The position numbers and the translations under genes were made by a program. From IMG/VR virus record IMGVR_UViG_3300027736_000020, positions 120,089 through 184,088 of that record: DNA of 64,000 nucleotides. One strand, given 5' to 3'. This DNA comes from a virus. The notes beneath the pieces were generated by a model. That model was not told the DNA's origin. It did not search any database and saw only the letters and a program-made list of their open reading frames with translations. Numbering within the stretch: position 1 is the stretch's first letter; each line of letters opens with the position of its first letter. Below, piece by piece: positions 48,139 to 64,000 of the stretch.

Positions 48139-48189
48139 TATTGTTCTTTCGTAGACAGTGTGGGGCGCATTGCTACGCCCCACGAGATG

Positions 48190-48726
48190 TTATTTCCAGA
48201 GTGTTTCCATGATGTTACAGGTGCAACTGTCGTTCAACCATCCATCATCTGGAGTGTTTCCTCCGTATGGTACAACCCTGATCCAGTGTACATGCTTGTT
48301 TGCTGGTATGTTGTTGTCATCTTGAAACTCAATGGTAAAATCTTCGTCAACGGCCATGTACATAGCAACTAGTTGGTTCCATGCTTCACGAGGTGACTTT
48401 GTCCATTCGTGATACGCAAAATTCTGATCAGGCAATGTATCTGAATCTGGATCTGGAATACGAATTTTCATGCCAATTTTTGCAGCAATGTTAAGCAATG
48501 CTGTTACTTCATTTGGCTCAGTGATGGAAACCCCATCAGCCATTACTACGTTTCCCTTGTGCATGGTAACGATTGGCTTGAGGATGCTGTCTGCGTATGT
48601 TTCTGCATTGATCAAGATGCCAATGTCTTCCTTGTCCATATCTTTTTCCTTTACATACAATCGGAATAACAATGTCATTTGGTTGAGTCGTTCAAGTGCT
48701 TCATCAATGGTTTTCATGTCAGTCAA
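48190..48726 (-). CDS. Hypothetical protein
   Basis: ORF track. Confidence 0.65.
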   Translation of the reverse strand: MTDMKTIDEALERLNQMTLLFRLYVKEKDMDKEDIGILINAETYADSILKPIVTMHKGNVVMADGVSITEPNEVTALLNIAAKIGMKIRIPDPDSDTLPDQNFAYHEWTKSPREAWNQLVAMYMAVDEDFTIEFQDDNNIPANKHVHWIRVVPYGGNTPDDGWLNDSCTCNIMETLWK

Positions 48727-49021
48727 AATCCGATGCTGTCCACTCGATATCCGGTGAACTGTTCATGACGATGTATCGTGGGGAGTATCCATCGATGTGA
48801 TCCCATTCGTCAGGATGTCCTCCATCATCATTGTCCTCGTTGTCATCGTCGTTGTCGTCATCATTATCATCATGAAAAGCAACGTCGTTTCTTTTCAGGA
48901 AATCTTTTGCCATTTGAAGAAGTTCTTGATCAAATTCTTTGTTTCTTTGAAACTCTTCGATAAACATTGCCAGCAAACCCATTGCGCGTTCTTCGTTTGT
49001 ATATTTTTTATTGGGAGACAT
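48719..49021 (-). CDS. Acidic hypothetical protein
   Basis: AAAGGA RBS; poly-D/N tract. Confidence 0.6.
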   Translation of the reverse strand: MSPNKKYTNEERAMGLLAMFIEEFQRNKEFDQELLQMAKDFLKRNDVAFHDDNDDDNDDDNEDNDDGGHPDEWDHIDGYSPRYIVMNSSPDIEWTASDFD

Positions 49022-49042
49022 GGTATTTCCTTTTTGAATGGT

Positions 49043-49190
49043 GCCCTACGGGTAAGGGGGTTACCCGTAGGGCGGCGGGAAATCGCATTATGCATATCAA
49101 TCACTACAGGTGCAGAGATATGCATGATGCTAGCCTGTCACTACATACCACAAGGCTATGGCATGATTGGCGGGGGAAGCGCCTGTGACA
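49043..49190. other. Intergenic cluster of three hairpins
   Basis: GCCCTACGGGTAA/TTACCCGTAGGGC (13 bp perfect); GCATTATGCATATC/GATATGCATGATGC; TGTCAC/GTGACA. Confidence 0.6.
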
Positions 49191-49205
49191 GATTTCTAAG
49201 AGTGC

Positions 49206-49580
49206 TTACCACCAACTCCAGTAATACACTCGATAGTCATCATTGATTGCTTGTCGCGCAATTTCAATGAATTCCTTGTTTTCGTTTTTGTGCCGTGCAT
49301 CTGATTTGCCAAAAAAGAATCCTTTCGTTTCCGGAAGTGTTTCACCCTCGTTTTGATATTCGAGGTCAGTCAAATCGTCAAGCGTAAGTTCCAGATATAC
49401 AGTATTGAAATGCATGTCAGGATTATCCACAAGCATGTCTTCATTGCGTTGTTTCCACAACTGTTCTAGCCAGCCATGCAGATTTGGATTCTTGCGCCAG
49501 TAAAATATTTCTTCAATGTTTTCTGGAGTAAATTCCTCAATAGAAGCCTTGGATTTGTATGCGTATTGGTCAAGACCCAT
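49206..49580 (-). CDS. Conserved phage hypothetical protein
   Basis: MGLDQY, YWRK...LHGW, LPETKGFFFG, VYYWSWW. Confidence 0.75.
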   Translation of the reverse strand: MGLDQYAYKSKASIEEFTPENIEEIFYWRKNPNLHGWLEQLWKQRNEDMLVDNPDMHFNTVYLELTLDDLTDLEYQNEGETLPETKGFFFGKSDARHKNENKEFIEIARQAINDDYRVYYWSWW

Positions 49581-49869
49581 TTTCTTTTTCCTCTCTTTCC
49601 TGCAATTTTTGTGTGTAATCACCCATGAGCAGCAGGTCATTACGCTCAAGATCACTATTGAGTGATTTCGTTTCCCAGATGAGTTCCTGAAGTTCCTCGT
49701 TGTAGTCAAACTCATCATTGTCCGCAGACAACTCGTCGATCATTGCAAAGTCTGCTACAAGGTTCAGAATCTTGTTCAGCAGCATCAATGCGTCTGTATC
49801 TTCCTGAAGATATTTTTCACAAAGAAGTACCACTGCTGGGTGATGTCGATCCAGATCATGTGCTTCCAT
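49570..49869 (-). CDS. Hypothetical protein
   Basis: ORF track; coupled to neighbours. Confidence 0.6.
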   Translation of the reverse strand: MEAHDLDRHHPAVVLLCEKYLQEDTDALMLLNKILNLVADFAMIDELSADNDEFDYNEELQELIWETKSLNSDLERNDLLLMGDYTQKLQEREEKENGS

Positions 49870-50231
49870 TATTGTATCCTTGTAATTCTGCAGTTATTTA
49901 CACACCATCCGTGCGTGTCACTGAGTTGATTGATGATGTCCTCAATGATATCTTCGTATTCTCGCTCATTACTCAATGAAACATTGAGTGGAGGATTTGT
50001 GTCATATTTGTCATCAATTTCAATTGTCAGAGTTTTTGGCAAGTCACTAAAATGATGACACGAACAACATTCTGGCTCGTCACCATCATCATTTGTTGTG
50101 TCCCAATCAATTTCTGTTACCTTGAATAACATTTTTTGTGTGCTTCTTTCCTTGTAGACTGCATGGAAGAGCGGCGAGGTTTTATGCCTCACCGCCGCAA
50201 TTGCCATGCTAAGGAGTTCTCTTTTGTTCAT
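49869..50231 (-). CDS. Hypothetical protein
   Basis: FKVTEIDWDT...LPKTLTIEI...LSDTHGWCV. Confidence 0.6.
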   Translation of the reverse strand: MNKRELLSMAIAAVRHKTSPLFHAVYKERSTQKMLFKVTEIDWDTTNDDGDEPECCSCHHFSDLPKTLTIEIDDKYDTNPPLNVSLSNEREYEDIIEDIINQLSDTHGWCVNNCRITRIQ

Positions 50232-50530
50232 TGATCCTTGTTCTGTTCTGTTTCAAACACTACAGGAATCTTGTCCACAATGAATTCCATTGGTTTGGCA
50301 TTTTCATCTGCAGCAAGTTCAAGCAGTTTATCGCTCATGGTATTGAGTGCCATGTGATATGCAAGGAATACTGCCATTCTTGCTCCACCTTTGGCTGGCA
50401 CTGCACTTGCAAGTTGTGTCACGTATTCGTACATCTTGGGAAGTGTTTCCCGGCTTGAGAACAAGTCGTTACGAACAAGGTGTGCAAGCCTGCGTACTTC
50501 TGCCAGTTTTTCTTCATGAGACTTTTGCAA
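50228..50530 (-). CDS. Hypothetical protein
   Basis: ORF track. Confidence 0.6.
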   Translation of the reverse strand: MQKSHEEKLAEVRRLAHLVRNDLFSSRETLPKMYEYVTQLASAVPAKGGARMAVFLAYHMALNTMSDKLLELAADENAKPMEFIVDKIPVVFETEQNKDQ

Positions 50531-50708
50531 TGATGTTATCCTTCATGGTGACTGTTGCAAACCATTTGCGTTGTGGACTACCATCTGCGACGTTGAATGT
50601 GCCGTTGGATTTGTATTCTTCTCCAAAGAATGATGTTTCCTTGTAGAACAATGACTTGCCAACTTGTTCCTTGAGTTCTTTCTTGGTTTTGTAAAATACC
50701 TGAATCAT
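50514..50708 (-). CDS. Small conserved phage hypothetical protein
   Basis: YKTKKELKEQVG..L.YKETSFFG.EY...RKWFATVTM. Confidence 0.65.
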   Translation of the reverse strand: MIQVFYKTKKELKEQVGKSLFYKETSFFGEEYKSNGTFNVADGSPQRKWFATVTMKDNIIAKVS

Positions 50709-50709
50709 G

Positions 50710-51330
50710 TTATTCCCCTGTGTCTGATTGCCATTGGATGTATTGTGCTTCTAGCATGGCACCTGCATATGTGTCGTTGTGATCAATTGGCCGATTTGCC
50801 CTTTCCATTTGGCTTTGACTGTCCATGTTGCTTCCGTTGTACTCTATTCCATATGACACACCATCCTTGCTTGTCCATGCAATCGTACATGTTTTTACAT
50901 AGTATTCAAATCCCATGTTTTCATGCACATTTTCTTGCACGTCCAGTATGTTGTCCTGATTTTCCTGAAAGATCCACATGACGCGGTCATCACCAGTCCC
51001 GTTGATGTTTACCAAGTGAATTTCAAGCATGTTCTTGATAAGTTGATTTCTTTTTGGATCGTTGTATGTTGACAGTGCATGTGCGCCTTGGTTTTCTATT
51101 GTTTGCACAAGACGTTGTGCGTGCTTCTGGATATCCTTGAGTTCTACGTCCTGATCGTAGAACCTGTGCGTTATTCCGTATCCCTTGGTATATGGATCCA
51201 TGCCGGTGTTGTTGCATTCCTCAAGATATGCCAAATCTGCTGCAATGTTCATGCCTTCATCAAGCAAGCGTATTGCCTTGTTGTTTCCGGCGAGATATTG
51301 GGCGCAAAGATATTTCATCAACGCTGACAT
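50710..51330 (-). CDS. Hypothetical protein
   Basis: Start moved to MSALMK (AAAGGA RBS). Confidence 0.6.
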   Translation of the reverse strand: MSALMKYLCAQYLAGNNKAIRLLDEGMNIAADLAYLEECNNTGMDPYTKGYGITHRFYDQDVELKDIQKHAQRLVQTIENQGAHALSTYNDPKRNQLIKNMLEIHLVNINGTGDDRVMWIFQENQDNILDVQENVHENMGFEYYVKTCTIAWTSKDGVSYGIEYNGSNMDSQSQMERANRPIDHNDTYAGAMLEAQYIQWQSDTGE

Positions 51331-51382
51331 CTTCGTTCCTTTTGTATTGGCAGGAGAGTATTTCATCCCCTGCCCGACAAGA

Positions 51383-51787
51383 TTACACGTTTAGTCGTGT
51401 GTATACAGGAGTTGTGCTTTGTACTTTCTTGAATAGTTCTGCAGTTGCCTTGATCTGGAAATGAGTCATCTTGATGACATGCGCGTTTGCTTTATCTGTT
51501 GCGTCAATCCTGAGAAGCAATTCCTGCATTTGTTCGACACAGTGCGTGAGGGTTGTCATGCTATGTCCTAAGATTCCGTTTATTCCGTATGGTTCTGTAA
51601 CACGCAAATCCCAGTACTCACGATCTTCTGTCCATTCCATGGCATTCCTTACCCACACTGCCATGTACTGCTTGGCTGATTCCGCTGCGGTATCATAGTC
51701 TTTGTCCCACACTGGAATGTACATTTCTGTTGGTGTGACTGTGGTGATTCCGTCGCGCCACTTGATGTTGTATACCCTAAATAACAT
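51383..51787 (-). CDS. Hypothetical protein
   Basis: ORF track. Confidence 0.6.
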   Translation of the reverse strand: MLFRVYNIKWRDGITTVTPTEMYIPVWDKDYDTAAESAKQYMAVWVRNAMEWTEDREYWDLRVTEPYGINGILGHSMTTLTHCVEQMQELLLRIDATDKANAHVIKMTHFQIKATAELFKKVQSTTPVYTRLNV

Positions 51788-51788
51788 C

Positions 51789-52373
51789 TCAGTTGTCCTT
51801 TGGTGTGCCGAACATGCTTACGATGACAGATTCTCCGGGATTGATGAGTACGTTCTTGTTTTTTAGCATCTCCCTTATTTCGCTGAATCCATCATTCATG
51901 GTGTTTCGTACATCTTGCACTTGCAAACCCAGATCTTCGACTTCGCTTTGCACGTTATTGATTGCATCTTCGCTGGAGCAAGTGATGTCGTGATGATCAA
52001 GATCAATGCTGATTTCATCAAAATGTCCGCGCAAGATTTCAATGATTTCAGTCTTGCTTGCCATTTCTGATTGCTTGCTCGACTGTGGCACTACATCATT
52101 GCCGTTGACAATTGCATCATGGATTTCATAGATGCTGACGGTCAGACGCTCGATCTTGTCATCCACCCTGTTGAATCGTGTTGCAAGAAGGCTCCACATG
52201 TCTTCCTGCTTCTTGGTCAGGGTATCCATTTTCTCCAGCATTTCCTTGTCATGTCGCGTTTGACGGGAATGCGCAGTGCTTTCGTCAATGCCGTTGTCCC
52301 TGACCATATACCATGTGTCACGTACGTATGATGGAATATGCGCAATGTCTTTGAGTGTTTTGGCAATGTTCAT
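51789..52373 (-). CDS. Coiled-coil hypothetical protein
   Basis: ORF track. Confidence 0.6.
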   Translation of the reverse strand: MNIAKTLKDIAHIPSYVRDTWYMVRDNGIDESTAHSRQTRHDKEMLEKMDTLTKKQEDMWSLLATRFNRVDDKIERLTVSIYEIHDAIVNGNDVVPQSSKQSEMASKTEIIEILRGHFDEISIDLDHHDITCSSEDAINNVQSEVEDLGLQVQDVRNTMNDGFSEIREMLKNKNVLINPGESVIVSMFGTPKDN

Positions 52374-52735
52374 AGTGTGTCTCTTTCAAGATCCGCTGCT
52401 GAGATTCTTGCTTCCATCTCGTCCATTTCGTACCTGTTGTCGTACGAATCCCAGTCTTCTTCTTCTTCTGCTGTCCTTTCTTGCAATACAATATGCACGA
52501 GCACATCCTGCATTGCCTGACGCCTTGCGCTCAATGTGCTGTTGTCCAGATTGATTTGCTGTTCCTTGATGTCGTATCTTTCTGCCAGTATTCTCCGTTC
52601 TCTCATGGCATCAATTTCGTCAAGATATGCATTGTTGTTGCCAATGTCTTCGCTTGCTTTTGCGATTTCATCCTTGAGAAAGTTCTTGAGTGTTTCTATT
52701 GAGACGATGCTCATGGTTGTTTCCTGTGGGGGCAA
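52370..52735 (-). CDS. Coiled-coil hypothetical protein
   Basis: ORF track. Confidence 0.6.
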   Translation of the reverse strand: MPPQETTMSIVSIETLKNFLKDEIAKASEDIGNNNAYLDEIDAMRERRILAERYDIKEQQINLDNSTLSARRQAMQDVLVHIVLQERTAEEEEDWDSYDNRYEMDEMEARISAADLERDTL

Positions 52736-52762
52736 GACATTGCTGTCCTGCCCCTGTTGTTG

Positions 52763-53065
52763 TTACTTCTTGATTGCGACAGTCTTTTTTGCTTCGTTGA
52801 CGATTTTTGCAGTCTTTCGTGGCCCTCGCACGTTGACAATGCGGAACACTACGGCAGTCTTGGTTGCTCCGATTCGGAAGATCTTGATTCCCAGTTCCTT
52901 GGCACTTGCATTGAGTACTCGCATTACCTGACGGCTGGTTTCGTTCTCTTCCATCTCCAGATTGATTCTTGCTCCAGTTGGCTGTGAGGCAAGGAAGTTC
53001 TTGGCTTCGGTGAGATCTACGGTGCTGCCGGTCTTGGTAACGATTGCGGTAGTAAACTTAGGCAT
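52763..53065 (-). CDS. Small basic hypothetical protein
   Basis: K/R-rich; GGGAAAG upstream. Confidence 0.6.
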   Translation of the reverse strand: MPKFTTAIVTKTGSTVDLTEAKNFLASQPTGARINLEMEENETSRQVMRVLNASAKELGIKIFRIGATKTAVVFRIVNVRGPRKTAKIVNEAKKTVAIKK

Positions 53066-53139
53066 TTCTTTCCCTTTCTTGTGTTTTGCGATTGCTTTGT
53101 TGTTGTGTTTTATTTTTTTACATTGGAGTTTCCATCTTT

Positions 53140-53817
53140 CTAGTACTGTTCGTCCATGTACTGGCCCGGCTCCACGTCTTCAATCCACACTGCGTATCCT
53201 GCGCCTTTGTCACCCCACGTCACTTCATAGCGTTTTGGGTGGATTTCAGTAACGATTGAGTCGTGAATGATATTTGGATCGTTGGGCGTATCAGATACTT
53301 GATCTTGATCTTCGATGGCTATCTTCTTGATCAGATCGTAGTATTTCTGTGCTTCCTCTTCGGATTCAAACCACATGCTTTCATCGGGAAGCCTGCCCGG
53401 AAATCCAGTGTGCACTGCATGCGTGATTTCCAGTCTTTTCCATAGTGGAAATTCACGTTCTGCAATATCGTCAATGTAGTGCAATGCAATCTCATGCCAA
53501 TTTACGCGGTCTATGACATTGACAAGAAAATCCTTTTTCAGTGCGTTCCGTTCTTTCTCTACTCCAAAAAGTTCACTAATTTCTTCCTTGGCGTAGTCTG
53601 CAACGCGATCAAGCAGTTCTTTTACTGCCTTTTTTTCTGTTTGGTAATCTGCTGCGTTTTTCTGTATTTCCTTCCATGCTTGCTTTGTGTAGTCATCAAA
53701 CATGCTTCCGTCATCATGCGCGTTGAACAGCCATGTCTCGTATGTTGACCACCCGTTGTATGGCCTGTCTGTGCTTTCCACTGGTGAGTAGCCAAGGACT
53801 TTTTCTACGTATCCCAT
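53140..53817 (-). CDS. Conserved phage hypothetical protein (family B)
   Basis: YNGWSTYETW; IDRVNWHEIALHY. Confidence 0.7.
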   Translation of the reverse strand: MGYVEKVLGYSPVESTDRPYNGWSTYETWLFNAHDDGSMFDDYTKQAWKEIQKNAADYQTEKKAVKELLDRVADYAKEEISELFGVEKERNALKKDFLVNVIDRVNWHEIALHYIDDIAEREFPLWKRLEITHAVHTGFPGRLPDESMWFESEEEAQKYYDLIKKIAIEDQDQVSDTPNDPNIIHDSIVTEIHPKRYEVTWGDKGAGYAVWIEDVEPGQYMDEQY

Positions 53818-54053
53818 TAGTCTTCCCTTTTTGGATTCATGACTTCGTGAATATGTTTGTTTATTGCTTCGTCAAGAGCCGTTCCAATGTTTTCGTAAAA
53901 CCAATCACTTATGTCTTGTTCTATTAGAGACAATAACATTTCAGCATCAGTTTCAGTAACATATTTATGATCATATTCAGTAATACGATCAAGAATCATT
54001 TCAACATCGACATTCAACAATATGTCTTCAGCAAAAATCTTTTTAGACATCAT
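53817..54053 (-). CDS. Small hypothetical protein (family A-like)
   Basis: VTETDAEMLLSLIE. Confidence 0.55.
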   Translation of the reverse strand: MMSKKIFAEDILLNVDVEMILDRITEYDHKYVTETDAEMLLSLIEQDISDWFYENIGTALDEAINKHIHEVMNPKRED

Positions 54054-54152
54054 GCATTTCTTTGATCATTCTATTTGCGATTTTTTGCACTTTGCAGTGC
54101 CCAGACAACAATGAGTGCGATAATCCATATTACTGCTTTTTCTGGATCCATT

Positions 54153-54911
54153 TCAGTGTTCGATGTAGTATTTGCTTGTTTGTGGCTGATCCCAGCATGC
54201 AGTACACACATCGCACATGTTTTCCGTTGTTGACGATGGACATATGATGTCGTTGTTCAGATTTTTCAGGGCATCTTCTTTTCCTATTACTCCGGTTCCT
54301 GCAGCAAATCCGGGAATATTGATGATATTTCCTGAGCCTTTTTCGCGTGCTGATGGGCGCAGGCTGACGTTTGGCAGTTTGGCAAAGTCTAATAAATGCG
54401 GCAATAGTTTATATAAATAGTCTTGTGCGTTAGCATTTGCCCCTTCTGGATATGATGATGTTGGTGCCCAGAATCGTACAGTACTGAACTCTGTTGCCAG
54501 CATGATCCATGATTCAATATACATTTCGGTATTGAAGTCACCTGAATCGTGTACTCTGAAGTATGGAACGTTTCTTTTTACGGTTGCCCACTCGATTGCC
54601 GACATCATTGTTGACAGCCAGTTGGCGTATTCGATGATTGCGCCTCGTCGGTGAGACTTTCGAGTCCAGAATGTGCGTATTTTCTGTGCATTCACGACAT
54701 TTTGATACAGATATGAATGCTTCATCGCATAGCAGTCTGCACATTTATGATTTTCTTTTGTCGTGGCACCCGGACACGTTTTTCCTGCAGTCAATCCAAA
54801 ACTGTATATTTGCGTGAGTTTTTCTGGTTTGCTTGCCAGTCGTATGCGCATCTTGGATGGTTTTGTCAGGATTGCTGTTGTTGTGTCCGGTATTGTTGGA
54901 TATGTTGCCAT
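54153..54911 (-). CDS. Phage Gp88-like Cys-containing protein
   Basis: SFGLTAGKTCPGA...CADCYAMK, YFRVHDSGDF, VRFWAPT, C-terminal CPSS..CDVCTACW. Confidence 0.7.
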   Translation of the reverse strand: MATYPTIPDTTTAILTKPSKMRIRLASKPEKLTQIYSFGLTAGKTCPGATTKENHKCADCYAMKHSYLYQNVVNAQKIRTFWTRKSHRRGAIIEYANWLSTMMSAIEWATVKRNVPYFRVHDSGDFNTEMYIESWIMLATEFSTVRFWAPTSSYPEGANANAQDYLYKLLPHLLDFAKLPNVSLRPSAREKGSGNIINIPGFAAGTGVIGKEDALKNLNNDIICPSSTTENMCDVCTACWDQPQTSKYYIEH

Positions 54912-54981
54912 TTGCTTGCCTTTTCCTTTTCTTGGGGTTATTTTTCCGCCTATTCCTTTCGTTTGAGATGTATTCGGTCTT

Positions 54982-55026
54982 CAACAAGGCACATGCGGGA
55001 GCATGTGCATCCCCGCGAAGCGCTGA
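54982..55026 (-). repeat. Conserved 45-bp leader element B, copy 1
   Basis: caacaagGCACATGC-ggga-GCATGTGCatccccGCGAAGCgctga on +; upstream of 54911. Confidence 0.9.
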
Positions 55027-55123
55027 CACAGGGAACAGGAGAAAACGCGCGGAATGCAGTCGGCAGCGGCACACTCCCGGGGTGGGCGGGGGATGGATGC
55101 ATTTCCTATCCCCCGCCGCGCAG

Positions 55124-55453
55124 TTATCCTGTCCTTGATTGTTCCAGCAGTGCTAGTGCTACGGTGTCGAAGTCTGTCATGGTAAACACATTGAGCAGTA
55201 GATTTTGCAGAAGCGGGTCGTCCATGTGTGTTACGTCGTCGCGTAGTTGCGATTCGATTTGTGCGCTTGTCCTGCTTATCTGATCGCTGATATTGTCGAA
55301 CATCATTGCGTCCTTGATGAGCATGCGACAGTATTCCGGATATCTCTTTTCAAGGTTGTACAGGATGGTTTTCTCGAACGTGGTGTTTGTTGTCTTGCCA
55401 ATCTTCTTGTTGCTGATCAGTTCGACCATCTCGTCACTTGTTATGCTTTTCAT
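55124..55453 (-). CDS. Hypothetical protein (family B)
   Basis: C-terminus FTMTDFDTVALALL. Confidence 0.6.
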   Translation of the reverse strand: MKSITSDEMVELISNKKIGKTTNTTFEKTILYNLEKRYPEYCRMLIKDAMMFDNISDQISRTSAQIESQLRDDVTHMDDPLLQNLLLNVFTMTDFDTVALALLEQSRTG

Positions 55454-55853
55454 AGTATTTCACGAGTTCCTTTGCGAGTGATTCCCACCCGATATTCTGG
55501 AATGCGCGTTCTGCCATGTTTGCCAATAGCATTTCGCGCTCAAGAAGCACTTTCTCATCTTGGTTGTCTGCTTCCAGTCGAGAGTTCTCGATGGATTCCG
55601 TGAATGGAACAACAATCCTTGTTGTTGCATACTTTGACAACTTTGATGACAGGTAATGCACCGTGTGATTGTTGTACTCTTGTGCGCTGGACGCGAAGTT
55701 GGTTGCTTCGCGTTGCGCTTCCTTGAACAACATCTTGATGTCATTCCTGATTGACTCTGCTGGCAGTGTCTTGTCGGTTGCGTACTTGTACAGGATTCTC
55801 GTCTCTCGTGTTGCATCCTTGATCGAATATTCGCGGTTCATTAGATACTCCAA
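55434..55853 (-). CDS. Hypothetical protein (family B)
   Basis: C-terminus AFQNIGWESLAKELV. Confidence 0.6.
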   Translation of the reverse strand: MEYLMNREYSIKDATRETRILYKYATDKTLPAESIRNDIKMLFKEAQREATNFASSAQEYNNHTVHYLSSKLSKYATTRIVVPFTESIENSRLEADNQDEKVLLEREMLLANMAERAFQNIGWESLAKELVKYYEKHNK

Positions 55854-56179
55854 GGGATTTCCTCTTCTCGCTCTCTTATTTTTTCCGTGATGATGGTTCC
55901 CATGTCAATCATGGTCAACACCATGGTCAGGCATTGTGCCGATATGTCGTTCATTGCCTTGATCTTGCCTTTGGTAAAATCTCCATTCTTGTCGTTTTCG
56001 GATTTGATGTCAACAAGGCGTTTTATTTCGACATCAAGGTTGTATGACATGGTAGTCAGCAAGTCGATTTGATGTGAGAGCACGTACCTCTCTAGATGAT
56101 CATCAAATGACGGATGATGCAGGTTTTTCTTGAGTTGCTTGAGCAGTTCTTCCTGAATGATTGCTTCAAGTTTTTCCAT
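55841..56179 (-). CDS. Hypothetical protein
   Basis: ORF track. Confidence 0.6.
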   Translation of the reverse strand: MEKLEAIIQEELLKQLKKNLHHPSFDDHLERYVLSHQIDLLTTMSYNLDVEIKRLVDIKSENDKNGDFTKGKIKAMNDISAQCLTMVLTMIDMGTIITEKIREREEEIPWSI

Positions 56180-56182
56180 GAT

Positions 56183-56437
56183 CTACTCTTGTGCATATTT
56201 GATGTCGTGCATCATGCTGCTGATCATGGTTGCACGCTTGTTTTTGTTCAGTCCGCAGATTGCAAAGTCAATGTACTGGATTGCTTCAGTGCGTGCAACA
56301 ACCCAATACTGTATTTCGGTTTCAGCAGGGACACTTGCGTAGGAGTCTCCATCCACAAGTGCCTTGCCTGAGAAACGTTTGCTTTCCAGTTCATCGGCAA
56401 GTGCCTCCATGCACTTGCCGTAGAACCATTGATTCAT
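56183..56437 (-). CDS. Hypothetical protein
   Basis: Start moved to MNQWFYG. Confidence 0.5.
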   Translation of the reverse strand: MNQWFYGKCMEALADELESKRFSGKALVDGDSYASVPAETEIQYWVVARTEAIQYIDFAICGLNKNKRATMISSMMHDIKYAQE

Positions 56438-56457
56438 GAGTGTTCGTGTTGCGAACT

Positions 56458-56898
56458 TCACTTTGCAAGCCTTTTTTGTCTGTATGTCATGGATCGCCTT
56501 TTGGAGGCAAAATCGATGATTTTCAGTTTTGGAGTATTCATGACATAGTTCAGGATTTCGTCGAGTTCTTCGAAGTTTGCGTAGGTGTGAATGCCGTACC
56601 CATCGTGTCCCGGCACTTGATACCATTCGTCATTGGTGTTGTGCTTGACTCCGACTTCGAAGTCCTTGCTTGTCCACGGCAGGCTTCCGTTCTCGCTTAC
56701 AAATGGTTTGATGTAGTGCTCACAATAGTTTGCGCCGCCAAAGACAATAGATACCTTGATCTTTTTGTCCGTGAAAATGATTGCAAACCCTCGATTGCTC
56801 TTGTAGAGCACGAACTCCACGTTTTCTGGTTTGGTGTCGTAAAGGCGTTTTGCAATGCCTTCCAGTTTGAGCGTTTTGTCTGTGTTGATGCCGATCAT
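56458..56898 (-). CDS. Hypothetical protein
   Basis: Start moved to MIGINT (AAAGGA RBS). Confidence 0.6.
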   Translation of the reverse strand: MIGINTDKTLKLEGIAKRLYDTKPENVEFVLYKSNRGFAIIFTDKKIKVSIVFGGANYCEHYIKPFVSENGSLPWTSKDFEVGVKHNTNDEWYQVPGHDGYGIHTYANFEELDEILNYVMNTPKLKIIDFASKRRSMTYRQKRLAK

Positions 56899-56923
56899 TG
56901 TTGTTCCTTTGTTGTTGTGTGAC

Positions 56924-56949
56924 AGTTTTGTGGAGATCTGCCAACTCCG
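56924..56949 (-). repeat. 26-bp intergenic motif C, copy 1 (others at 57987-58012, 59790-59815, 60090-60115)
   Basis: agttttg(t/a/g)ggagatct(g/t)ccaactccg on +; each copy 4-8 nt from a minus-strand stop codon. Confidence 0.85.
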
Positions 56950-56953
56950 GTGC

Positions 56954-57328
56954 TTAGTCGAGTGGATTCGGTATTCCCTTTTCCTTTCCGCTATCCTGAT
57001 ACCACAGGGCAAACTTTTCCAGAGATTCTTCCTGTTCTTCGTTGAGTTCAACGACGATTGAAGCAACACTTTTCTTTTTGTCAAAGTATTGCTCAAGGTA
57101 CTCGGGCAGGTTCATTGCCCATGTGCGAAGCAACCTGTAATACGGTGCCTGATCCTGCCAGTTGGTGACATTCCACTGTTTTGTGGTTTGCCACTCTCCG
57201 TCCTTGATTTCATCCTGACGGATGATGATCAAGTCCACTGCTGGCCGACCTTCAAGGTCGATGGTTTGGTATGCCGTGAACGCAACGTTTGGCCTTGCGG
57301 TGTTTTTTGGCGACGGTATCAGATACAT
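56954..57328 (-). CDS. Hypothetical protein
   Basis: ORF track. Confidence 0.6.
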   Translation of the reverse strand: MYLIPSPKNTARPNVAFTAYQTIDLEGRPAVDLIIIRQDEIKDGEWQTTKQWNVTNWQDQAPYYRLLRTWAMNLPEYLEQYFDKKKSVASIVVELNEEQEESLEKFALWYQDSGKEKGIPNPLD

Positions 57329-57675
57329 TATCGTGGCCTTTCCAGCAGTTTTGTGGCAGTTAGTTCTGCCATTTCGGTGTCGAAGACAAACTCTGCATCG
57401 ATTGGATGTTCCGAATCGGGCAGAAGAAGTGCATTCCTTGGAGTTATTTGATACAACGACGATGCGGGATGTGCATAGAACAGATACATCCTGTTGTCCA
57501 GATACAACGAAAAATGTCCGCTTACTTGCCCAACATGCGTTGTCTTGTACAGCCTTTGCGTTTTTGGCGTACGCGTATTCTGAAGATGCGCGGCTGCGAG
57601 ATCAGAGGAATGATTGATCATTTTCTTGAACAATGCGTTTGCGATCTCGTCTTTTTCGTGATCTTCCAGAAACAT
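57328..57675 (-). CDS. Hypothetical protein
   Basis: Start moved to MFLEDH (AAAGGA RBS). Confidence 0.6.
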   Translation of the reverse strand: MFLEDHEKDEIANALFKKMINHSSDLAAAHLQNTRTPKTQRLYKTTHVGQVSGHFSLYLDNRMYLFYAHPASSLYQITPRNALLLPDSEHPIDAEFVFDTEMAELTATKLLERPR

Positions 57676-57698
57676 GTTTTTTCCTTTTTGTGATACAA

Positions 57699-57973
57699 GC
57701 AATCCCCTGTCGCCTGTGCTGTCAAGCGTGATCTTCTTTGAATAAAGAAGATCCGGGCATCAACCATCCTCGCGGATGTCCGCCGCGTTGCTTGCTATCT
57801 CGCTTGTTTCGATACTTTCCCGTTAGGGTAAACAGCGTGTGGGATGCCTCTCAGCGGCCACACTGTTATTTATGTATCGTTGGATACCATGCACCACGAA
57901 CTAGTTTCGTGTCCCATGCACATGGTTTATAATCCCAAGTCCGATATGGGCAGCACAGGCGACAGTCGATTGC
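57699..57973 (-). ncRNA. Candidate structured ncRNA E1 (class unknown)
   Basis: 15-bp perfect closing stem 57707-57721/57951-57965, extended by GCAATC/GATTGC; internal hairpins including CATCC-GCGA-GGATG and GATCTTCTTT/AAAGAAGATC. Confidence 0.6.
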
Positions 57974-58018
57974 CTGTGTGGTTGGCAGTTTTGAGGAGAT
58001 CTGCCAACTCCGTGCAGT

Positions 58019-58381
58019 TTAGAACTGTTCTACGGTTTCTTCTTTCTTTTCGAACACCTTGGTGCACACTGGACACGTTTCTCCAGCGTCGCTATTGTAG
58101 TACTTGACGCTTGCTGACACGAGCGTCTCTAGCGTGGAGACAAGATCACCCATCTTGTGCAACTCTGCCAACTTGGAGTCAGTCGATGTCATTGCCTCGC
58201 GCATGCGCGAGACGCGCTCGTCGCGTTCCTGCCACGTCGCGTTTTCCTTCTCCGTTTCGAGCAACTTGTAGTTGCGTTCGTTGGAGATTCCGATGATCTG
58301 ACGCTCATACAGTTGCTTGAGCACCTGTATCGCTTGCTGAAGTGTCTTCAGGCTGCTGTCCGGGATGTATTGTTGGTACAT
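58019..58381 (-). CDS. Coiled-coil protein with C-terminal CPVC
   Basis: GGAGG RBS. Confidence 0.65.
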   Translation of the reverse strand: MYQQYIPDSSLKTLQQAIQVLKQLYERQIIGISNERNYKLLETEKENATWQERDERVSRMREAMTSTDSKLAELHKMGDLVSTLETLVSASVKYYNSDAGETCPVCTKVFEKKEETVEQF

Positions 58382-58441
58382 TGTAGCCTCCGCGTAAGTG
58401 TGTGACGGTTTTTGTGAGGGTTCACCGACAACCCTTTGCGA

Positions 58442-59029
58442 TCACATCTGTGTGTCGCAGGTGTAGAAGATTCGGTAGCCTTCCCCTACCGCTTGTTTTG
58501 CCAGTTCCATGGCCGCGAGGTCTTCGTTGACCATTCGATACGACTTTTCCCAGAAATGCGATTCGCTTTCCCGCTGCAAATCCATTGCAACTTCTGTGGC
58601 GATTTCTTCCAAGTCGAACTGATTTAGTTCTACCCAAGTTACAAGCATATGCTTGTTATTCGGGTTGTAGAACTTGGATTTCTGGTAGATTTCGATCATC
58701 TTGCCTTGGATGTTACCGTGATTCAACCATCCGTACAAGATCTGGTACCCGAAACTTGGGTACTCGCCACCAGATGGCAGCGGTGTTTCCCATTTGCTGA
58801 TCGGTGCTCCGGGTGGCACTGCTACCAAGTAGCCGCGGATTTCCTTGTCGTCCCATTCTGCCTTTTCGACAAGATACTTGATCTCGTCTGGCGTGGAGAA
58901 TCCGCGTCGGAGGTTTCCATACGCCTTGTTCGTTTCGTAGTAGTCACGTATGATTTCTGCTTCAATGCGCATGTTTTCGTCTTCGTCTTTGATGCGCCAA
59001 TGTTCCGTGTGACTGCCAAATCCGCTCAT
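58442..59029 (-). CDS. Hypothetical protein, distantly like 49206..49580
   Basis: Start moved to MSGFGSH (AAAGGA); GWLNHGNIQG...YRIFYTCD. Confidence 0.6.
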   Translation of the reverse strand: MSGFGSHTEHWRIKDEDENMRIEAEIIRDYYETNKAYGNLRRGFSTPDEIKYLVEKAEWDDKEIRGYLVAVPPGAPISKWETPLPSGGEYPSFGYQILYGWLNHGNIQGKMIEIYQKSKFYNPNNKHMLVTWVELNQFDLEEIATEVAMDLQRESESHFWEKSYRMVNEDLAAMELAKQAVGEGYRIFYTCDTQM

Positions 59030-59090
59030 TTTTGTTCCTTTGGGAGGAAGCAACCCAGCGGAGTAGGGGGTTCTCCGCTGGGTTCTGATG

Positions 59091-59336
59091 TCAGTCCTTG
59101 TAGACCGACTTGATGATGACTGGAGCCGCTTTCCTTTCGGTTTTGCTCTTCCAGTATTCGATTTGCTCTTGCAGTTCGATTTCTCGCAGTCGGGCTTGTG
59201 ACGCAGCGGCGTCCATTTCTCGGCGGAGTTGTTCCTTGCTAAGGATATCTCCATCCAAGTCCTTGTGAAGCCCGCGGATGACTGCGTGGCACGTCTTGAT
59301 GTCATCCGGGAGATAGATTGGCGCGATGATTTTCAT
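59091..59336 (-). CDS. Small coiled-coil hypothetical protein
   Basis: Start moved to MKIIAP (AAAGGA). Confidence 0.55.
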   Translation of the reverse strand: MKIIAPIYLPDDIKTCHAVIRGLHKDLDGDILSKEQLRREMDAAASQARLREIELQEQIEYWKSKTERKAAPVIIKSVYKD

Positions 59337-60120: not shown

Positions 60121-60546
60121 TTACTTGGTGGCTAGGTATTCCTCATATACCTTTACAGCCAGCCTTGCGAGGTATTCGACATCGATTCGAGCAAAAGGCC
60201 CACTGAAGTCAATGAGCCCCTTTTCAAATGATTCGAATGGATTTCTCTTGAGATTCTGGTGCATTTCCTCGTGGACGAAGTCGATGTACGATCCCAGTTC
60301 GTATTCGAAGAGATTGTACAGGTCTTCGCCTTCCTCGCTGCGGACTATTCCCCAGAACATCTCGAAGTTCATGAGATTATTCGGGGTATCGCAGGAGTTT
60401 GGGCAACTCTCCCACGTGTACTGCGTCTCCCAGTTGGGAAATGCAGCCACGAACTGCCTGTCAGGCTCCACCATGTCTGGTGCAACCTTTACAAATAAAC
60501 TGGTGAGAAGTATGTGTGCCGCGTCGTTGGAGATGTCCATCGCCAT
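60121..60546 (-). CDS. Acidic hypothetical protein (family B-like C-terminus)
   Basis: FARIDVEYLARLAV. Confidence 0.6.
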   Translation of the reverse strand: MAMDISNDAAHILLTSLFVKVAPDMVEPDRQFVAAFPNWETQYTWESCPNSCDTPNNLMNFEMFWGIVRSEEGEDLYNLFEYELGSYIDFVHEEMHQNLKRNPFESFEKGLIDFSGPFARIDVEYLARLAVKVYEEYLATK

Positions 60547-60620
60547 TTTATTCGTCCTTATGTTGTGTCGGTTTTTAGGGTTGACCGAAAACCTTGTCAG
60601 GGGTACCGGGTTAGGTGTGT

Positions 60621-60884
60621 TTAGTCGCTTAGCATCGCTGATTCTTCAATCAGCACTGTGCGGTTAGACGGGTCGATGCTCACAAACTTCGGACGCTGTC
60701 CAACGCGGAATCCTGATGCGTGGTTGCCACGGTGGCCGGATGCCATTGCTTCGACTTCCGCCTCGATGGCATTTTTGGCGGAAGTCAAGTCGACCCCGTC
60801 GCTGATTTTGAAGGAGACGTGCCAAACGTCCCTCCACGCCTCGGCTCGGTACGACAGAACTACGCGCGTATTCCAGTCAATCAT
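60621..60884 (-). CDS. Small hypothetical protein
   Basis: Start moved to MIDWNT. Confidence 0.55.
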   Translation of the reverse strand: MIDWNTRVVLSYRAEAWRDVWHVSFKISDGVDLTSAKNAIEAEVEAMASGHRGNHASGFRVGQRPKFVSIDPSNRTVLIEESAMLSD

Positions 60885-60924
60885 TGGTTTTCTTTCTTGT
60901 TTGTTGCGCCGCATGTTTGATTAT

Positions 60925-61151: not shown

Positions 61152-61592
61152 TCAGGCGACTTCTTCCTGATTGTTCAGGATCGCCTGTTCGAGATTGCGA
61201 TCAGTCTGTTCGACTTTCTCGCTGTTCTCGGGAGCCAGTCTCCAGTTGATCAACCCCTTTGAAGAACGCTGAACCACTTGGAAGTTCTCGCGGATTTTTG
61301 CAAGGATAGCGAGTTGTCCCCGGTAGAACGCTCTCTCTTCCGGTGCGGTGGCCCTCTTCAGAGCCCCGGAGGCTGCGTTCTCGGCGTCTCGGTATTCGAG
61401 ATACAACTGCTTCACGTGCTTGCTCATGATCGGCAAGATGTCCCTGCCAATCTCCCCCTCGGGAGAGAAATACACGGGAAGTGTCATGTACGTGAACCCC
61501 TTGGTTCGTGTCCACGACGCTGCCTTGGTTTCGCCGCTGTTGCCGTTGTCCGCTTCTGGCTCGAATGCTGCCGTGAGGGCCGTGCTGGCCAT
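61152..61592 (-). CDS. Hypothetical protein
   Basis: Start moved to MASTAL (AAAGGA). Confidence 0.6.
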   Translation of the reverse strand: MASTALTAAFEPEADNGNSGETKAASWTRTKGFTYMTLPVYFSPEGEIGRDILPIMSKHVKQLYLEYRDAENAASGALKRATAPEERAFYRGQLAILAKIRENFQVVQRSSKGLINWRLAPENSEKVEQTDRNLEQAILNNQEEVA

Positions 61593-61660
61593 GCTCGTGT
61601 CCTTTCGTGACACTGTGGGCTTGTTCGCCCGGTTTTAGGGAGGCTTTCACCTCCAATCCC

Positions 61661-61705
61661 CAACAAGGCACATGCGGGAGCATGTGCATCCCCGCGAAGC
61701 GGTGA
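61661..61705 (-). repeat. Leader element B, copy 2
   Basis: Same core as copy 1; followed on the minus strand by GGAGGTGA. Confidence 0.9.
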
Positions 61706-61747
61706 TTCAGGAAACAGAAGAAGAGAGAGAGAAAAAAACAGGAGCGC

Positions 61748-61789
61748 TCAGCACCCCGGGGAGGTGAAGGGGATTCCCCGGGGTGTTGA
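61748..61789. terminator. GC-rich hairpin after 61801..62118
   Basis: TCAGCACCCCGGGGA...TCCCCGGGGTGTTGA; T-rich tract further downstream on the minus strand. Confidence 0.55.
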
Positions 61790-61800
61790 TGGGATGGAAA

Positions 61801-62118
61801 CTATTCGACTTCGACTTCGATAAGATCTGCCGTGTAATAACACCCTGAATAGTCGAGCCAGCACCGAAGTGCCTGCTCATGGGTGGTGGGCATGTGCCCG
61901 AAGTTGATATCCGCTACGCCGAACACCTGCACATACTCGCGCAGGTTCCCCTCTTCGATGAACTGCTGAAAGATGAATGACCTCTCCGAGGCCGTCAGGT
62001 TGGGAACTTCGAACTCCACGTTGACGTAGTAGTTGGTGGCCTTCGGGGCAAGCCCCGTTTTCACATACAGTGTTTCGGCAAGTGCGAGTGAGGGATTGAG
62101 GGTGATCTTCAGCAACAT
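61801..62118 (-). CDS. Hypothetical protein
   Basis: Start moved to MLLKIT (GGAGG RBS). Confidence 0.65.
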   Translation of the reverse strand: MLLKITLNPSLALAETLYVKTGLAPKATNYYVNVEFEVPNLTASERSFIFQQFIEEGNLREYVQVFGVADINFGHMPTTHEQALRCWLDYSGCYYTADLIEVEVE

Positions 62119-62176
62119 TGTAGCCTCCGTGTAAGTGTGTGCCGGTTTTTTGGGTTGACCGGAAACCCCCGCGCGT

Positions 62177-62374
62177 TTACCCCCCGCGGTTGGGGCGGGC
62201 TGCCACCGCATTGCTGCGGCTCATTGGAGCCCGAAGATACCACCAATCCTGTGGTGGTGCAGGGGGCATTGCCGTGCCCCGGGTCTGTTCGCAACGCAGG
62301 CGGTTGGCGGCCGCCCGTTCGGCTTCCCGCCGACGGAGTTGACGGTGTAGGGAAAAAAGAGCCTCACTACCCAT
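62177..62374 (-). CDS. Small Arg/Ala-rich ORF following element B copy 3
   Basis: GGAGGTGA RBS; MGSEALF. Confidence 0.4.
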   Translation of the reverse strand: MGSEALFSLHRQLRRREAERAAANRLRCEQTRGTAMPPAPPQDWWYLRAPMSRSNAVAARPNRGG

Positions 62375-62393
62375 GTGACTCACCTCCACACCC

Positions 62394-62438
62394 CAACAAG
62401 GCACATGCGGGAGCATGTGCATCCCCGCGAAGCGGTGA
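62394..62438 (-). repeat. Leader element B, copy 3
   Basis: Same core. Confidence 0.9.
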
Positions 62439-62597
62439 TTCAAAGGATCGGGGAAAACGATGTGATGATCAGGAAACGCACCTACAGATTCGACAAAAAC
62501 GCGCGAAAAAAGAAGAAATGCTAGGAAAAGAAAGAGAAGAAAGAGAAACCATGACAGGAACGCACCAGTACCCATGGTGGTAACGGGGATCCCCCAC

Positions 62598-62897
62598 GGT
62601 GGTAACGGGGATTAAGAGACTGGGGCGGTTGCGATGGTGTGGGGGAAGTGCGTGCTCGCTCCGTGATTGTGACGTAGCATTGATCGATCAGGAACGAGAT
62701 GGTGCTATGGCTTCATCACATTGATCTTGAAGAACGCACAGAGGGGGTCAGGGGGCGAAGCCCCGTTGCAGGTGGTTTGGAGGACGGAGTCCTCCAATAA
62801 GATGGGGCTACGAGCGCAGCGAGTAGCATCCATCGTGGGATTAGGGCAAACGGAAAAAAGAGTCACCCGACGCCCCTCTTTCGAGGAACGCCGGGTG
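62598..62897. repeat. ~300-bp direct repeat block A, copy 1
   Basis: Near-identical to 63318-63614 and the start of 63950-64000. Confidence 0.95.
62854..62897 (-). terminator. Intrinsic terminator in block A
   Basis: CACCCGGCGTTCCTC-GAAA-GAGGGGCGTCGGGTG then ACTCTTTTTT on the minus strand. Confidence 0.85.
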
Positions 62898-62905
62898 TGA
62901 AAACG

Positions 62906-63199
62906 TCAGACGTAGTGCTTCGCAAGCGAGGCTTTCTGCGCGTTTTCAAATTTCGCAGAAAGTTCTTTGACGATGGCCATCGCCAATCCGAACCTAGAGT
63001 CGGCTACTGCCAATTCTAGGGCGTGCCGTGCCACAACGGCGGCCCGAGCGGCCCGTGCCGCCTCCATTCCCGCAATCGCCTCATCCCGAGCGGCCCGTGC
63101 CGCGAGCCTCTCGGGGTCGTTCGTGAAATTAGCCTTTCGGACGGCGTCCGCGGCCGTCCCTACTTGCTCTTCCCAGAGCAAACGATCATTTCGTGACAT
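62906..63199 (-). CDS. Cassette ORF 1, Ala-rich helical hypothetical protein
   Basis: GGAGGTGA RBS; MSRNDRLLW. Confidence 0.7.
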   Translation of the reverse strand: MSRNDRLLWEEQVGTAADAVRKANFTNDPERLAARAARDEAIAGMEAARAARAAVVARHALELAVADSRFGLAMAIVKELSAKFENAQKASLAKHYV

Positions 63200-63217
63200 G
63201 TTGTCACCTCCACACCC

Positions 63218-63262
63218 CAACAAGGCACATGCGGGAGCATGTGCGTCCCCGCGAAGCGCTGA
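63218..63262 (-). repeat. Leader element B, copy 4
   Basis: Part of a ~115-bp block near-identical to 63834-63949. Confidence 0.95.
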
Positions 63263-63317
63263 TCCAGCAAGACGGGGAAAACGCATCATGTTGACACGTG
63301 TCCGCGATGCCCCCCAA

Positions 63318-63614
63318 GGTGGTAACGGGGATTAAGAGACTGGGGCGGTTGCGATGGTGTGGGGGAAGTGCGTGCTCGCTCCGTGATTGTGACGTAACGA
63401 TGATCGATCAGGAACGAGATGGTGATATGGCTTCAGTGCGTTGATCTTGAAGAACGCGAGTAGGGGGTCAGGGGGCGAAGCCCCGCTGCAGGTGGTTTGG
63501 AGGACGGAGTCCTCCAATAAGATGGGGCTACGAGCGCAGCGAGTAGCATCCATCGGGATTAGGGTAAACGAAAAAAGAGTCACCCGACGCCCCTCTTTCG
63601 AGGAACGCCGGGTG
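63318..63614. repeat. ~300-bp direct repeat block A, copy 2
   Basis: See copy 1; terminator at 63571-63614. Confidence 0.95.
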
Positions 63615-63623
63615 ACGGTGCGG

Positions 63624-63833
63624 TTACTGAATGAGATCGAGAGACCAGTCCCCGCCCTCATGGGCGAGTGCGAGAATAAGTGCGTCGCGCGTCTTTTCGA
63701 CGTTGACGCGGGCGTCAACCCGCGCCCTGACGGAAATCGCGTTGTCCCGGCTTGCCGAGTCCTGCTGGGCATTCAAGATGGCCCGCAAAGTTGCCTTGGC
63801 TTCCCTGAACTGCTTCAGTTTTTCATGTGACAT
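63624..63833 (-). CDS. Cassette ORF 2, small helical hypothetical protein
   Basis: GGAGGTGA RBS; MSHEKLKQF. Confidence 0.7.
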   Translation of the reverse strand: MSHEKLKQFREAKATLRAILNAQQDSASRDNAISVRARVDARVNVEKTRDALILALAHEGGDWSLDLIQ

Positions 63834-63850
63834 GTGTCACCTCCACACCC

Positions 63851-63895
63851 CAACAAGGCACATGCGGGAGCATGTGCGTCCCCGCGAAGCGGTGA
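63851..63895 (-). repeat. Leader element B, copy 5
   Basis: Same core. Confidence 0.95.
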
Positions 63896-63949
63896 TCCAG
63901 CAAGACGGGGAAAACGCATCATGTTGACACGTGTCCGCGATGCCCCCAA

Positions 63950-64000
63950 GGTGGTAACGGGGATTAAGAGACTTGGGTGGTTGCGCTGGTGTGGGGGAAG
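63950..64000. repeat. Block A, copy 3 (truncated by the window end)
   Basis: ggtggtaacggggattaagagact...ggtgtgggggaag. Confidence 0.85.

Follow-up and report, generated by a model that had tools for sequence, protein, structure and literature searches.

Introduction

In phage genomes, the fastest turnover of anti-defence and host-takeover genes takes place in the early region. Lambdoid morons are promoter-gene-terminator units inserted between genes, and the promoter-early stem-loop cassettes (PeSLs) of T4-type phages are, to our knowledge, the only well-described device for early-gene turnover. In the T4-type phages RB49/phi1, PST and nt-1 the PeSLs shuffle ORFans (PMC2839356, PMC4122927). 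Here, an array of composite repeats and small open reading frames (ORFs) is described, which occupies the minus strand of positions 61600-64000, at the head of the early region, in a 64,000-nucleotide (nt) stretch of viral DNA (positions 120,089 to 184,088 of IMG/VR record IMGVR_UViG_3300027736_000020). This stretch, referred to as the window in the following, forms the final 64 kb of a contig of 184,088 bp from an uncultured freshwater phage, denoted G000, which is estimated to be 97% complete.

The array shares several properties with PeSLs. The repeated intergenic unit holds signals for expression besides a terminator stem-loop, and its last element is a Shine-Dalgarno site with a start codon behind it; the unit is located in a plastic early region ahead of ORFans; close relatives, here known from short-read assemblies, differ by insertion, deletion and replacement with breaks at the units; and neither system employs a site-specific recombinase. 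In contrast to the roughly 50-100 nt of a PeSL, however, the unit described here is about 420 nt long with copies that are 94-100% identical, and the strong sigma-70-like early promoter that defines PeSLs (-35/-10 with AT-rich sequence upstream) is absent. Instead, it harbors a block of about 250 nt of hairpins with compensatory changes as well as template-strand mini-hairpin motifs. Only three full copies and two slots are present, the phage is not placed as T4-type, and the polymerase beside the array is DnaE-like. The locus is a variation on known phage accessory-gene shuffling, PeSL-like in function without the sigma-70 promoter of PeSLs. What is unusual here is the length and identity of the repeat, the hairpins under apparent selection and the template-strand mini-hairpin motifs in a genome without a visible polymerase to read them.

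Morons resemble the cassettes as autonomous small units with their own terminator, whose accessory genes are present or absent between relatives, but they lack long near-identical direct repeats at their borders and carry ordinary host-type promoters. With integron arrays the locus shares a one-directional series of small, promoterless-looking genes between structured repeats; contrary to integrons, it comes with no integrase, and its long homologous repeats bear a terminator and a ribosome-binding site rather than being attC sites. An initial annotation, made from the letters of the window, had named both PeSLs and integrons as analogues; the former comparison fits by function, despite the missing sigma-70 promoter, and the latter has to be rejected.

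Architecture of the repeat unit

Read on the minus strand, the composite repeat of about 420 nt has three parts, namely a strong terminator, block A (about 250 nt) and leader B (about 70 nt conserved). Near-identical repeats around small ORFs are found on this strand just where the initial annotation had placed them. Leader B forms a 113-nt family with four copies (61645-61757, 62378-62490, 63202-63314 and 63835-63947) and a fifth, core-only member (54979-55047), and its 27-nt core matches five times in the window compared with 0.00 matches expected from shuffles. The periods amount to 633, 720/717, 824 and 733 nt. The 245 nt of block A at 62591-62835 and 63311-63555 are 94% identical, a 58-nt piece of it lies at 63943-64000, and a 45-nt terminator segment is 100% identical between 62853-62897 and 63570-63614. 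The terminators T1 and T2, assigned from sequence only, have GC-rich stems and are positioned directly upstream of A1 and A2, respectively.

Leader B is composed of a mini-hairpin (CCGC-TTC-GCGG), a perfect 8-bp hairpin (GCACATGC-TCCC-GCATGTGC) and the subsequent CTTGTTGGGGTGTGGAGGTGA. Its terminal element GGAGGTGA is located 4-6 nt before the ATG in B0, B1 and B2; in four of the five B sites it follows the B core directly, and in three of these a start codon comes next. B heads ORF69, ORF97, ORF65, ORF153 and the unit at 54911, with a complete block A only ahead of the first three. In B3, GGAGGTGA is followed by AAGCCTCC, so that GGAGG/CCTCC pairing is possible, and by no start codon; the Shine-Dalgarno copy of B3 may be unused.

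The minus-strand order in G000 is the DnaE gene (divergent), AT-rich tracts, iterons, A0-B0-ORF69-T, A1-B1-ORF97-T, A2-spacer-B2-ORF65-ORF105-T' and B3-ORF153 onward. This amounts to three A copies, five B sites in the window and two slots that are fully bounded by repeats. The end of the window is also the end of the contig, where the A piece at 63943-64000 is cut. The last 163 nt of the contig overlap with its first 163 nt with four differences, variants private to A0 are present on both ends, and the first 357 nt contain a complete A and B. The simplest reading of these ends is a sequence that closes on itself and was broken by the assembler within the repeat, an extra hidden cassette at the contig break being possible. 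In one of the related contigs introduced below, L029, iterons, A0, B0 and cargo are indeed found in one contiguous stretch. Contrary to the initial annotation, in which the array continued past the window, it would instead close on the start of the contig and end at a block of six 25-bp iterons. The iteron block beside A0 is a candidate replication origin.

Two coding interpretations of the repeat were discarded. A 72-codon frame in block A lacks a Shine-Dalgarno site, is interrupted by TAG in all A2-type copies and would suffer non-synonymous changes from the hairpin substitutions, and a 132-aa ORF running across the spacer and B2 into ORF65 was judged spurious.

Cassette content in related contigs

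A scan of short-read metagenome contigs with the B core yielded three relatives, L026, L027 and L029, and one chance match, L028, in which the palindromic core falls inside a low-complexity repeat. L027 and L029 belong to one population (99.98% identity over 5.7 kb), and L029 is 88-96% identical to G000 in the unique flanks. Both have the order iterons-A0-B0-[68 aa]-T-A1-B1-[151 aa + 98 aa]-T-A2-spacer-B2-ORF65, which is the scaffold of G000 with different contents: slot 1 holds a 69-aa ORF in G000 and a 68-aa ORF in L029/L027, and slot 2 a 97-aa ORF in G000 versus a 151-aa ORF together with a 98-aa membrane protein in L029/L027. None of the three L029 cargo genes has a homolog anywhere in the G000 genome. 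Similarity between G000 and L029 ends a few nucleotides into each cargo gene, past its start codon, and sets in again 10-25 nt behind the stop codon, where the terminator stem has its base. Because the breaks fall at these two points, the exchangeable unit is the coding part alone, and the repeat is its constant frame.

The third relative, L026, displays the order iterons-A-spacer-B2-ORF65, with a single A and no cassettes, and is otherwise about 98-100% identical to G000 (100% from ORF65 to ORF141). Its A joins the upstream flank of A0 to the body of A2, with a crossover within the first ~115 nt, where A0 and A2 match exactly. This cassette-free haplotype is probably genuine, though not proven, since a mis-join by the assembler would give the same junction as a deletion between A0 and A2. 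The initial annotation had regarded fixed content in relatives as the outcome that would speak against shuffling; what is observed are relatives that differ by cassette replacement, and possibly by loss, at the repeat borders.

Between lineages, A copies at the same position have variants in common (A0 with A0, A1 with A1, A2 with A2), other variant sites are mosaic, and the distances between copies within a genome are about those between genomes, namely 10-25 differences. This pattern fits recurrent recombination or conversion among the copies.

G000 is a very divergent phage, and more distant relatives of the array were not detected. Distant blastn against a phage GenBank collection gave no match, nor did IMG/VR searched with the B core, an A segment, a degenerate B pattern and an intergenic hairpin motif, and no relatives were found in IMG/VR with ORF153 and the ORF151 family. 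The DnaE-based relatives L008-L025 (about 40% amino acid identity) show no similarity to A or B and no repeats of at least 40 nt upstream of DnaE. Judged by these searches, the array is specific to the lineage of G000 and its three relatives.

Probable cassette exchange between repeats

Taken together, the locus is probably a hyperplastic site at which a composite repeat bounds exchangeable slots for orphan genes, with a PeSL-like recombination of the cassettes and with expression signals supplied by the repeat. The three copies A0, A1 and A2 would bound two slots, each with one or two orphan genes. Because the repeats are about 420 nt long (350-420 nt) and 94-100% identical, ordinary homologous recombination can act on them: between copies within one genome it would delete or excise cassettes, comparable to the mini-circles that exchange between neighbouring PeSLs gives rise to, and between co-infecting relatives it would replace them. 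The exchanged genes, whatever function they may have, would each receive from the repeat an upstream terminator, a ribosome-binding site and probably a transcription start. Since the template strand bears GCGNAGC/GCGNNAGC motifs at the hairpins of A and B, these hairpins may act partly at the DNA level. PeSL logic would then be at work in an unrelated, uncultured freshwater phage, with a far longer repeat and no host-type promoter.

An integrase had not been visible to the initial annotation, and none is found in the whole genome. PF00589 (tyrosine recombinase) gave no match at E ≤ 1 in G000, with all control genomes positive, and a six-frame Pfam search of the 184-kb genome detected no serine recombinase or resolvase. 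As neither type of enzyme is encoded, an integron-like mechanism is not supported. From the interpretation proposed initially, shuffling and the likeness to PeSLs are retained and the open-ended array is given up.

Several observations weigh against cassette exchange as formulated here. At 350-420 nt the repeat exceeds the read length, so cassette order and number in any of the assemblies could be chimeric, and the junction in L026, which passes from the A0 flank to the A2 body through ~115 nt common to both, is of the kind a mis-join produces. Only about three lineages were compared, L027 and L029 being one population. A consensus scan of 61600-64000 revealed no sigma-70 -10/-35 elements, and none of the five A-B units has a conserved TANNNT. 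Finally, the repeats are not required for local gene turnover, because a gene at 60621-60914 varies without them: G000 and L026 have this 97-aa ORF, L027/L029 have about 36 nt in its place, the difference spanning 60529-60905 with no A or B at its borders. The early region is plastic as a whole, and the repeats are one route among others.

Hairpins and the search for a promoter

At the 5' end of block A, the helices of hairpins H1 and H2 contain five pairs that are changed on both sides, compared with 0.7 in shuffles (1/500 of which reach this value) and 0 in slid controls. As each helix is changed in one copy only, these are two compensatory events rather than five. Helices predicted in the 3' half of A have no covariation support, and Rfam at a permissive threshold returned no family for either contig end. 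Selection for pairing acts on the conserved hairpins of both A and B. Every compensatory change is of the Watson-Crick type, so the changes are silent on which strand or molecule folds. Both the minus-sense RNA of the unit (z = -3.9) and the plus strand as DNA (z = -2.4) fold better than shuffles.

The loops of the A and B hairpins are pyrimidine-rich on the minus strand, unlike those of the terminators, which need to act in minus-sense RNA and use GAAA loops. Read on the plus strand, which is the template strand, H1 contains GCGCAGC, H2 has a C-GGA-G loop and H3 is GGGGC-GAA-GCCCC (GCGAAGC); the B mini-hairpin becomes CGC-GAA-GCG (GCGAAGC) and the 8-bp hairpin of B becomes GCGGGAGC. These loops match the GCGNAGC/GCGNNAGC consensus of mini-hairpin DNA, which is known from the primase sites of G4-type origins, from ssiA and from N4 early promoters (PMC13037366). 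In the entire 184 kb the plus strand contains CGCGAAGCG only at the six B copies. Within the 9.5-kb early region, mini-hairpin motifs are found 20 times on the plus and four times on the minus strand, at six times the density of the remaining genome.

The initial annotation had described each unit as an apparently self-contained expression cassette. A Shine-Dalgarno site and a strong terminator are present in each unit, but no promoter could be identified. The 607 nt upstream of the iterons contain eleven TANNNT, together with one 9-of-12 match to the consensus that is directed into the array. A sigma-54 reading of B, made by eye, was rejected, as the GG/GC spacing is off by one and the GG is absent in B2 and B3. 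Two readings remain: either the units carry a non-canonical promoter, or a transcript begun further upstream reads through the terminators, and A and B act in the RNA.

The first of these readings takes a specific form in comparison with phage N4, whose vRNAP depends on a template-strand hairpin that has a loop of 3 nt, A/G at -11, G at -10 and -8 and a sheared G:A pair (PMC4496689); the P2 hairpin is GAAGC-GGA-GCTTC (PMC13492108). By analogy, the B mini-hairpin, and perhaps H2 and H3, would extrude from supercoiled DNA on the template strand and be read by an injected or early phage RNA polymerase. Starting about 10-11 nt downstream, at the first G of the 8-bp hairpin, such an enzyme would provide each cassette mRNA with a protective 5' stem-loop. 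Similar to the N4 early promoters P1-P3, the template-strand hairpins here have GAA or GGA triloops closed by C-G, occur in few copies that all head early transcription units, and have identical bases at -12 to -8; on direct reading both B and H3 (CGAAG) follow the rule of A at -12, purine at -11, G at -10, C at -9 and G at -8. The triloops of B, H3 and H2, the H1 motif and the 8-bp hairpin, the confinement of CGCGAAGCG to the B copies, the strand bias and density of the motifs and the lack of any conserved sigma-70 -10 element in the units all favour this idea. On the other hand, the B stem of 3-4 bp is shorter than the 5-7 bp of N4, and the nearest template C, a possible +1, lies 10 nt from the loop centre instead of 11 nt. 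The better-than-shuffled folding of the minus-sense RNA and the purely Watson-Crick compensation, which does not tell strands or molecules apart, count against it as well. Furthermore, no T7/N4-like or multisubunit RNA polymerase is recognisable in G000 by six-frame Pfam, by PHROGs on the giant proteins, by a PDB sequence search or by scans for the motifs R-x3-K-x6-7-YG and (N/D/A/S)-A-D-(F/Y/L/M)-DGD, all of which a very divergent enzyme could escape. The phage also differs from N4 in its size of 184 kb and its myovirus-type baseplate genes, not being a schitovirus, and N4 promoters are not known as cassette borders. We therefore consider N4-style hairpin promoters unlikely, albeit compatible with cassette exchange by recombination.

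A combination of both ideas is more speculative and still less probable. In it, the ~420-nt unit would be dual-purpose: its mini-hairpins with cGNAg loops would act as promoters or enhancers for an unrecognised transcription or priming enzyme that reads structure, and the same unit would provide portable homology that moves orphan genes. If this were true, hairpin-promoter transcription would extend beyond the schitoviruses and be tied to a gene-shuffling device. Should the hairpins turn out to be DNA-level signals, nature would offer in this locus a second case of promoters or priming sites that are read by their structure, and the locus would point to an unrecognised polymerase. Otherwise the locus, with its two slots and three repeats, would still be a clean, small model in which cassette exchange through repeats can be measured.

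Other explanations

The same plus-strand mini-hairpins might serve replication, as single-strand initiation or primase sites of an iteron origin, with repetition and cassettes as a by-product. This is suggested by the position of A0, which adjoins the six 25-bp iterons and the AT-rich tracts with the divergent DnaE gene beyond, by the occurrence of GCGNAGC/GCGNNAGC at the G4-type origin and the ssiA primase site (PMC13037366) and by the strand bias of the motifs. Contrary to this expectation, further B copies lie at distances of 2 kb and 9 kb from the iterons and immediately precede a transcription unit in each case, and the succession of B core, GGAGGTGA (four of five sites) and start codon (three) fits a role in expression. 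Iteron number, in addition, varies between lineages independently of the A copies, with six in L026 and, by motif search, three (at least 3) in L029. An origin as the primary purpose of the repeats is thus improbable.

About equally doubtful is an assembly artefact, in which mis-traversed repeats or mixed strains would have generated the cassette differences or the array itself. G000 breaks inside a repeat and its ends overlap imperfectly, L027 breaks within the repeat as well, and the junction of L026 lies in a stretch exactly common to A0 and A2. Nevertheless, the scaffold from the iterons and A0 to A2, spacer and B2 was assembled in both G000 and L029, whose flanks have diverged to 88-96% identity. 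Furthermore, the A copies retain position-specific variants, unique junction sequence joins each cargo to B and to the terminator, the L029 cargo is missing from the whole G000 genome, and L027 and L029 agree over 5.7 kb.

Divergence after a tandem duplication, by which the cargo genes would be diverged paralogs and the non-coding flanks would be kept alike by gene conversion, is very improbable. An Ala/Arg-rich stretch of 18 residues is similar in ORF97 and the 68-aa cargo of L029 (61% identity, E = 6e-4 in a single comparison), three cargo ORFs begin with Met-Ser, and ORF97 is predicted to be entirely helical. However, no other cargo pair is similar, and the ORFs of 69, 97 and 65 aa have no significant mutual similarity, which bears out the initial view of unrelated cargo. 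Slot 2, moreover, is occupied by a helical protein of 97 aa in one lineage and by a member of a conserved 151-aa family plus a membrane protein in the other. Of 1.84 billion representatives, a profile search with ORF97 recovers none outside the cluster of ORF97 itself.

Site-specific capture in the manner of integrons, in which block A would be a folded site of recombination, as hairpin-rich repeats around single-gene cassettes in one orientation might suggest, is hardly credible in a genome estimated to be 97% complete that lacks tyrosine and serine recombinases, with long, near-identical repeats unlike attC and with borders at start codon and terminator instead of a core site.

Cargo, neighbouring genes and feature coordinates

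The features of the array and its surroundings are compiled in Table 1.

Table 1. Elements of the array and flanking features. Positions are those of the window, unless given in contig numbering (G000).
Feature	Position	Strand	Remarks
DnaE-like gene	starts at G000 base 1067		divergent
AT-rich tracts	G000 822-855 and 995-1012		flank the iterons
Iterons, 6 x 25-bp tandem	G000 462-610 (outside window)		93% matches; between A0 and DnaE-like gene
Block A, copy A0, 3' end	63943-64000	minus	remainder = G000 bases 106-357, outside window
Leader B0	63835-63947	minus	mini-hairpin, 8-bp hairpin, GGAGGTGA
Cargo ORF69 (69 aa)	63624-63833	minus	orphan; only self-match
Putative intrinsic terminator T1	63579-63616	minus	17-bp stem, GAAA loop, T-run; after ORF69
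Block A, copy A1	63311-63560	minus	hairpins H1, H2, H3, ~150-nt mosaic segment, CCCC-N9-GGGG hairpin
Leader B1	63202-63314	minus	
Cargo ORF97 (97 aa)	62906-63199	minus	lineage-restricted orphan; predicted helical hairpin
Putative intrinsic terminator T2	62864-62897	minus	15-bp stem, GAAA loop, T-run; after ORF97
Block A, copy A2	62591-62840	minus	
Spacer of A2 unit	62443-62590	minus	22-nt duplication of A 3' end and pyrimidine-rich tract; conserved in L026, L027, L029
Leader B2	62378-62442	minus	
ORF65	62177-62374	minus	first ORF of fixed third unit; in all relatives
ORF105	61801-62118	minus	second gene of B2 unit; conserved intergenic hairpin motif ahead
Terminator-like hairpin, then leader B3	61645-61757	minus	7-bp stem, T7 run; without block A
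ORF153	61152-61613	minus	headed by B3; likely start is ATG at 61592, behind second small hairpin
Leader B4, core only	54979-55047	minus	heads unit starting with 252-aa GP88-family protein
GP88-family protein (252 aa)	54153-54911		first gene behind B4; PF17338, E = 1.5e-21

None of the cargo matches a PHROG, and ORF69 has no homologs. ORF97 has two near relatives with 96% and 87% identity, the latter on a 163-kb contig; its model of two long helices is uninformative. The 151-aa cargo of L029 belongs to a family with 18 homologs (54-68% identity), some of them on contigs of 93 and 183 kb, and a fold search with its model (pLDDT 78.5) gave nothing at E ≤ 0.001. That ORF65 is coding is doubtful, because comparison with L029 reveals 0 synonymous and 3 non-synonymous changes; ORF105 (6 synonymous, 5 non-synonymous) and ORF141 (15 and 6) look more gene-like.

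Downstream of the array, ten minus-strand ORFs (47593-59305) were compared with Pfam and gave matches only to GP88, to DUF1281_C and, below threshold, to DUF7249; the GP88 protein is one of very few early proteins of this phage with a family match. Elsewhere in G000, several proteins of 1,280-1,935 aa are without any family match; an atlas search with the 1935-aa protein gave nothing usable.

A further hairpin motif, TYCGGTCAACC-N3-AAAACCGRCAC, is positioned right after a stop codon and ahead of the next start. It is present at 62119-62176, at 60547-60600 and at about 5040-5095 of L029, where it precedes ORF105, ORF141 and the 98-aa cargo, respectively. The G+C content increases along the window, from about 36% where it begins to 53-58% in the early region of small ORFs, which makes up the last 6 kb, and nowhere in the window is it higher than in the array.

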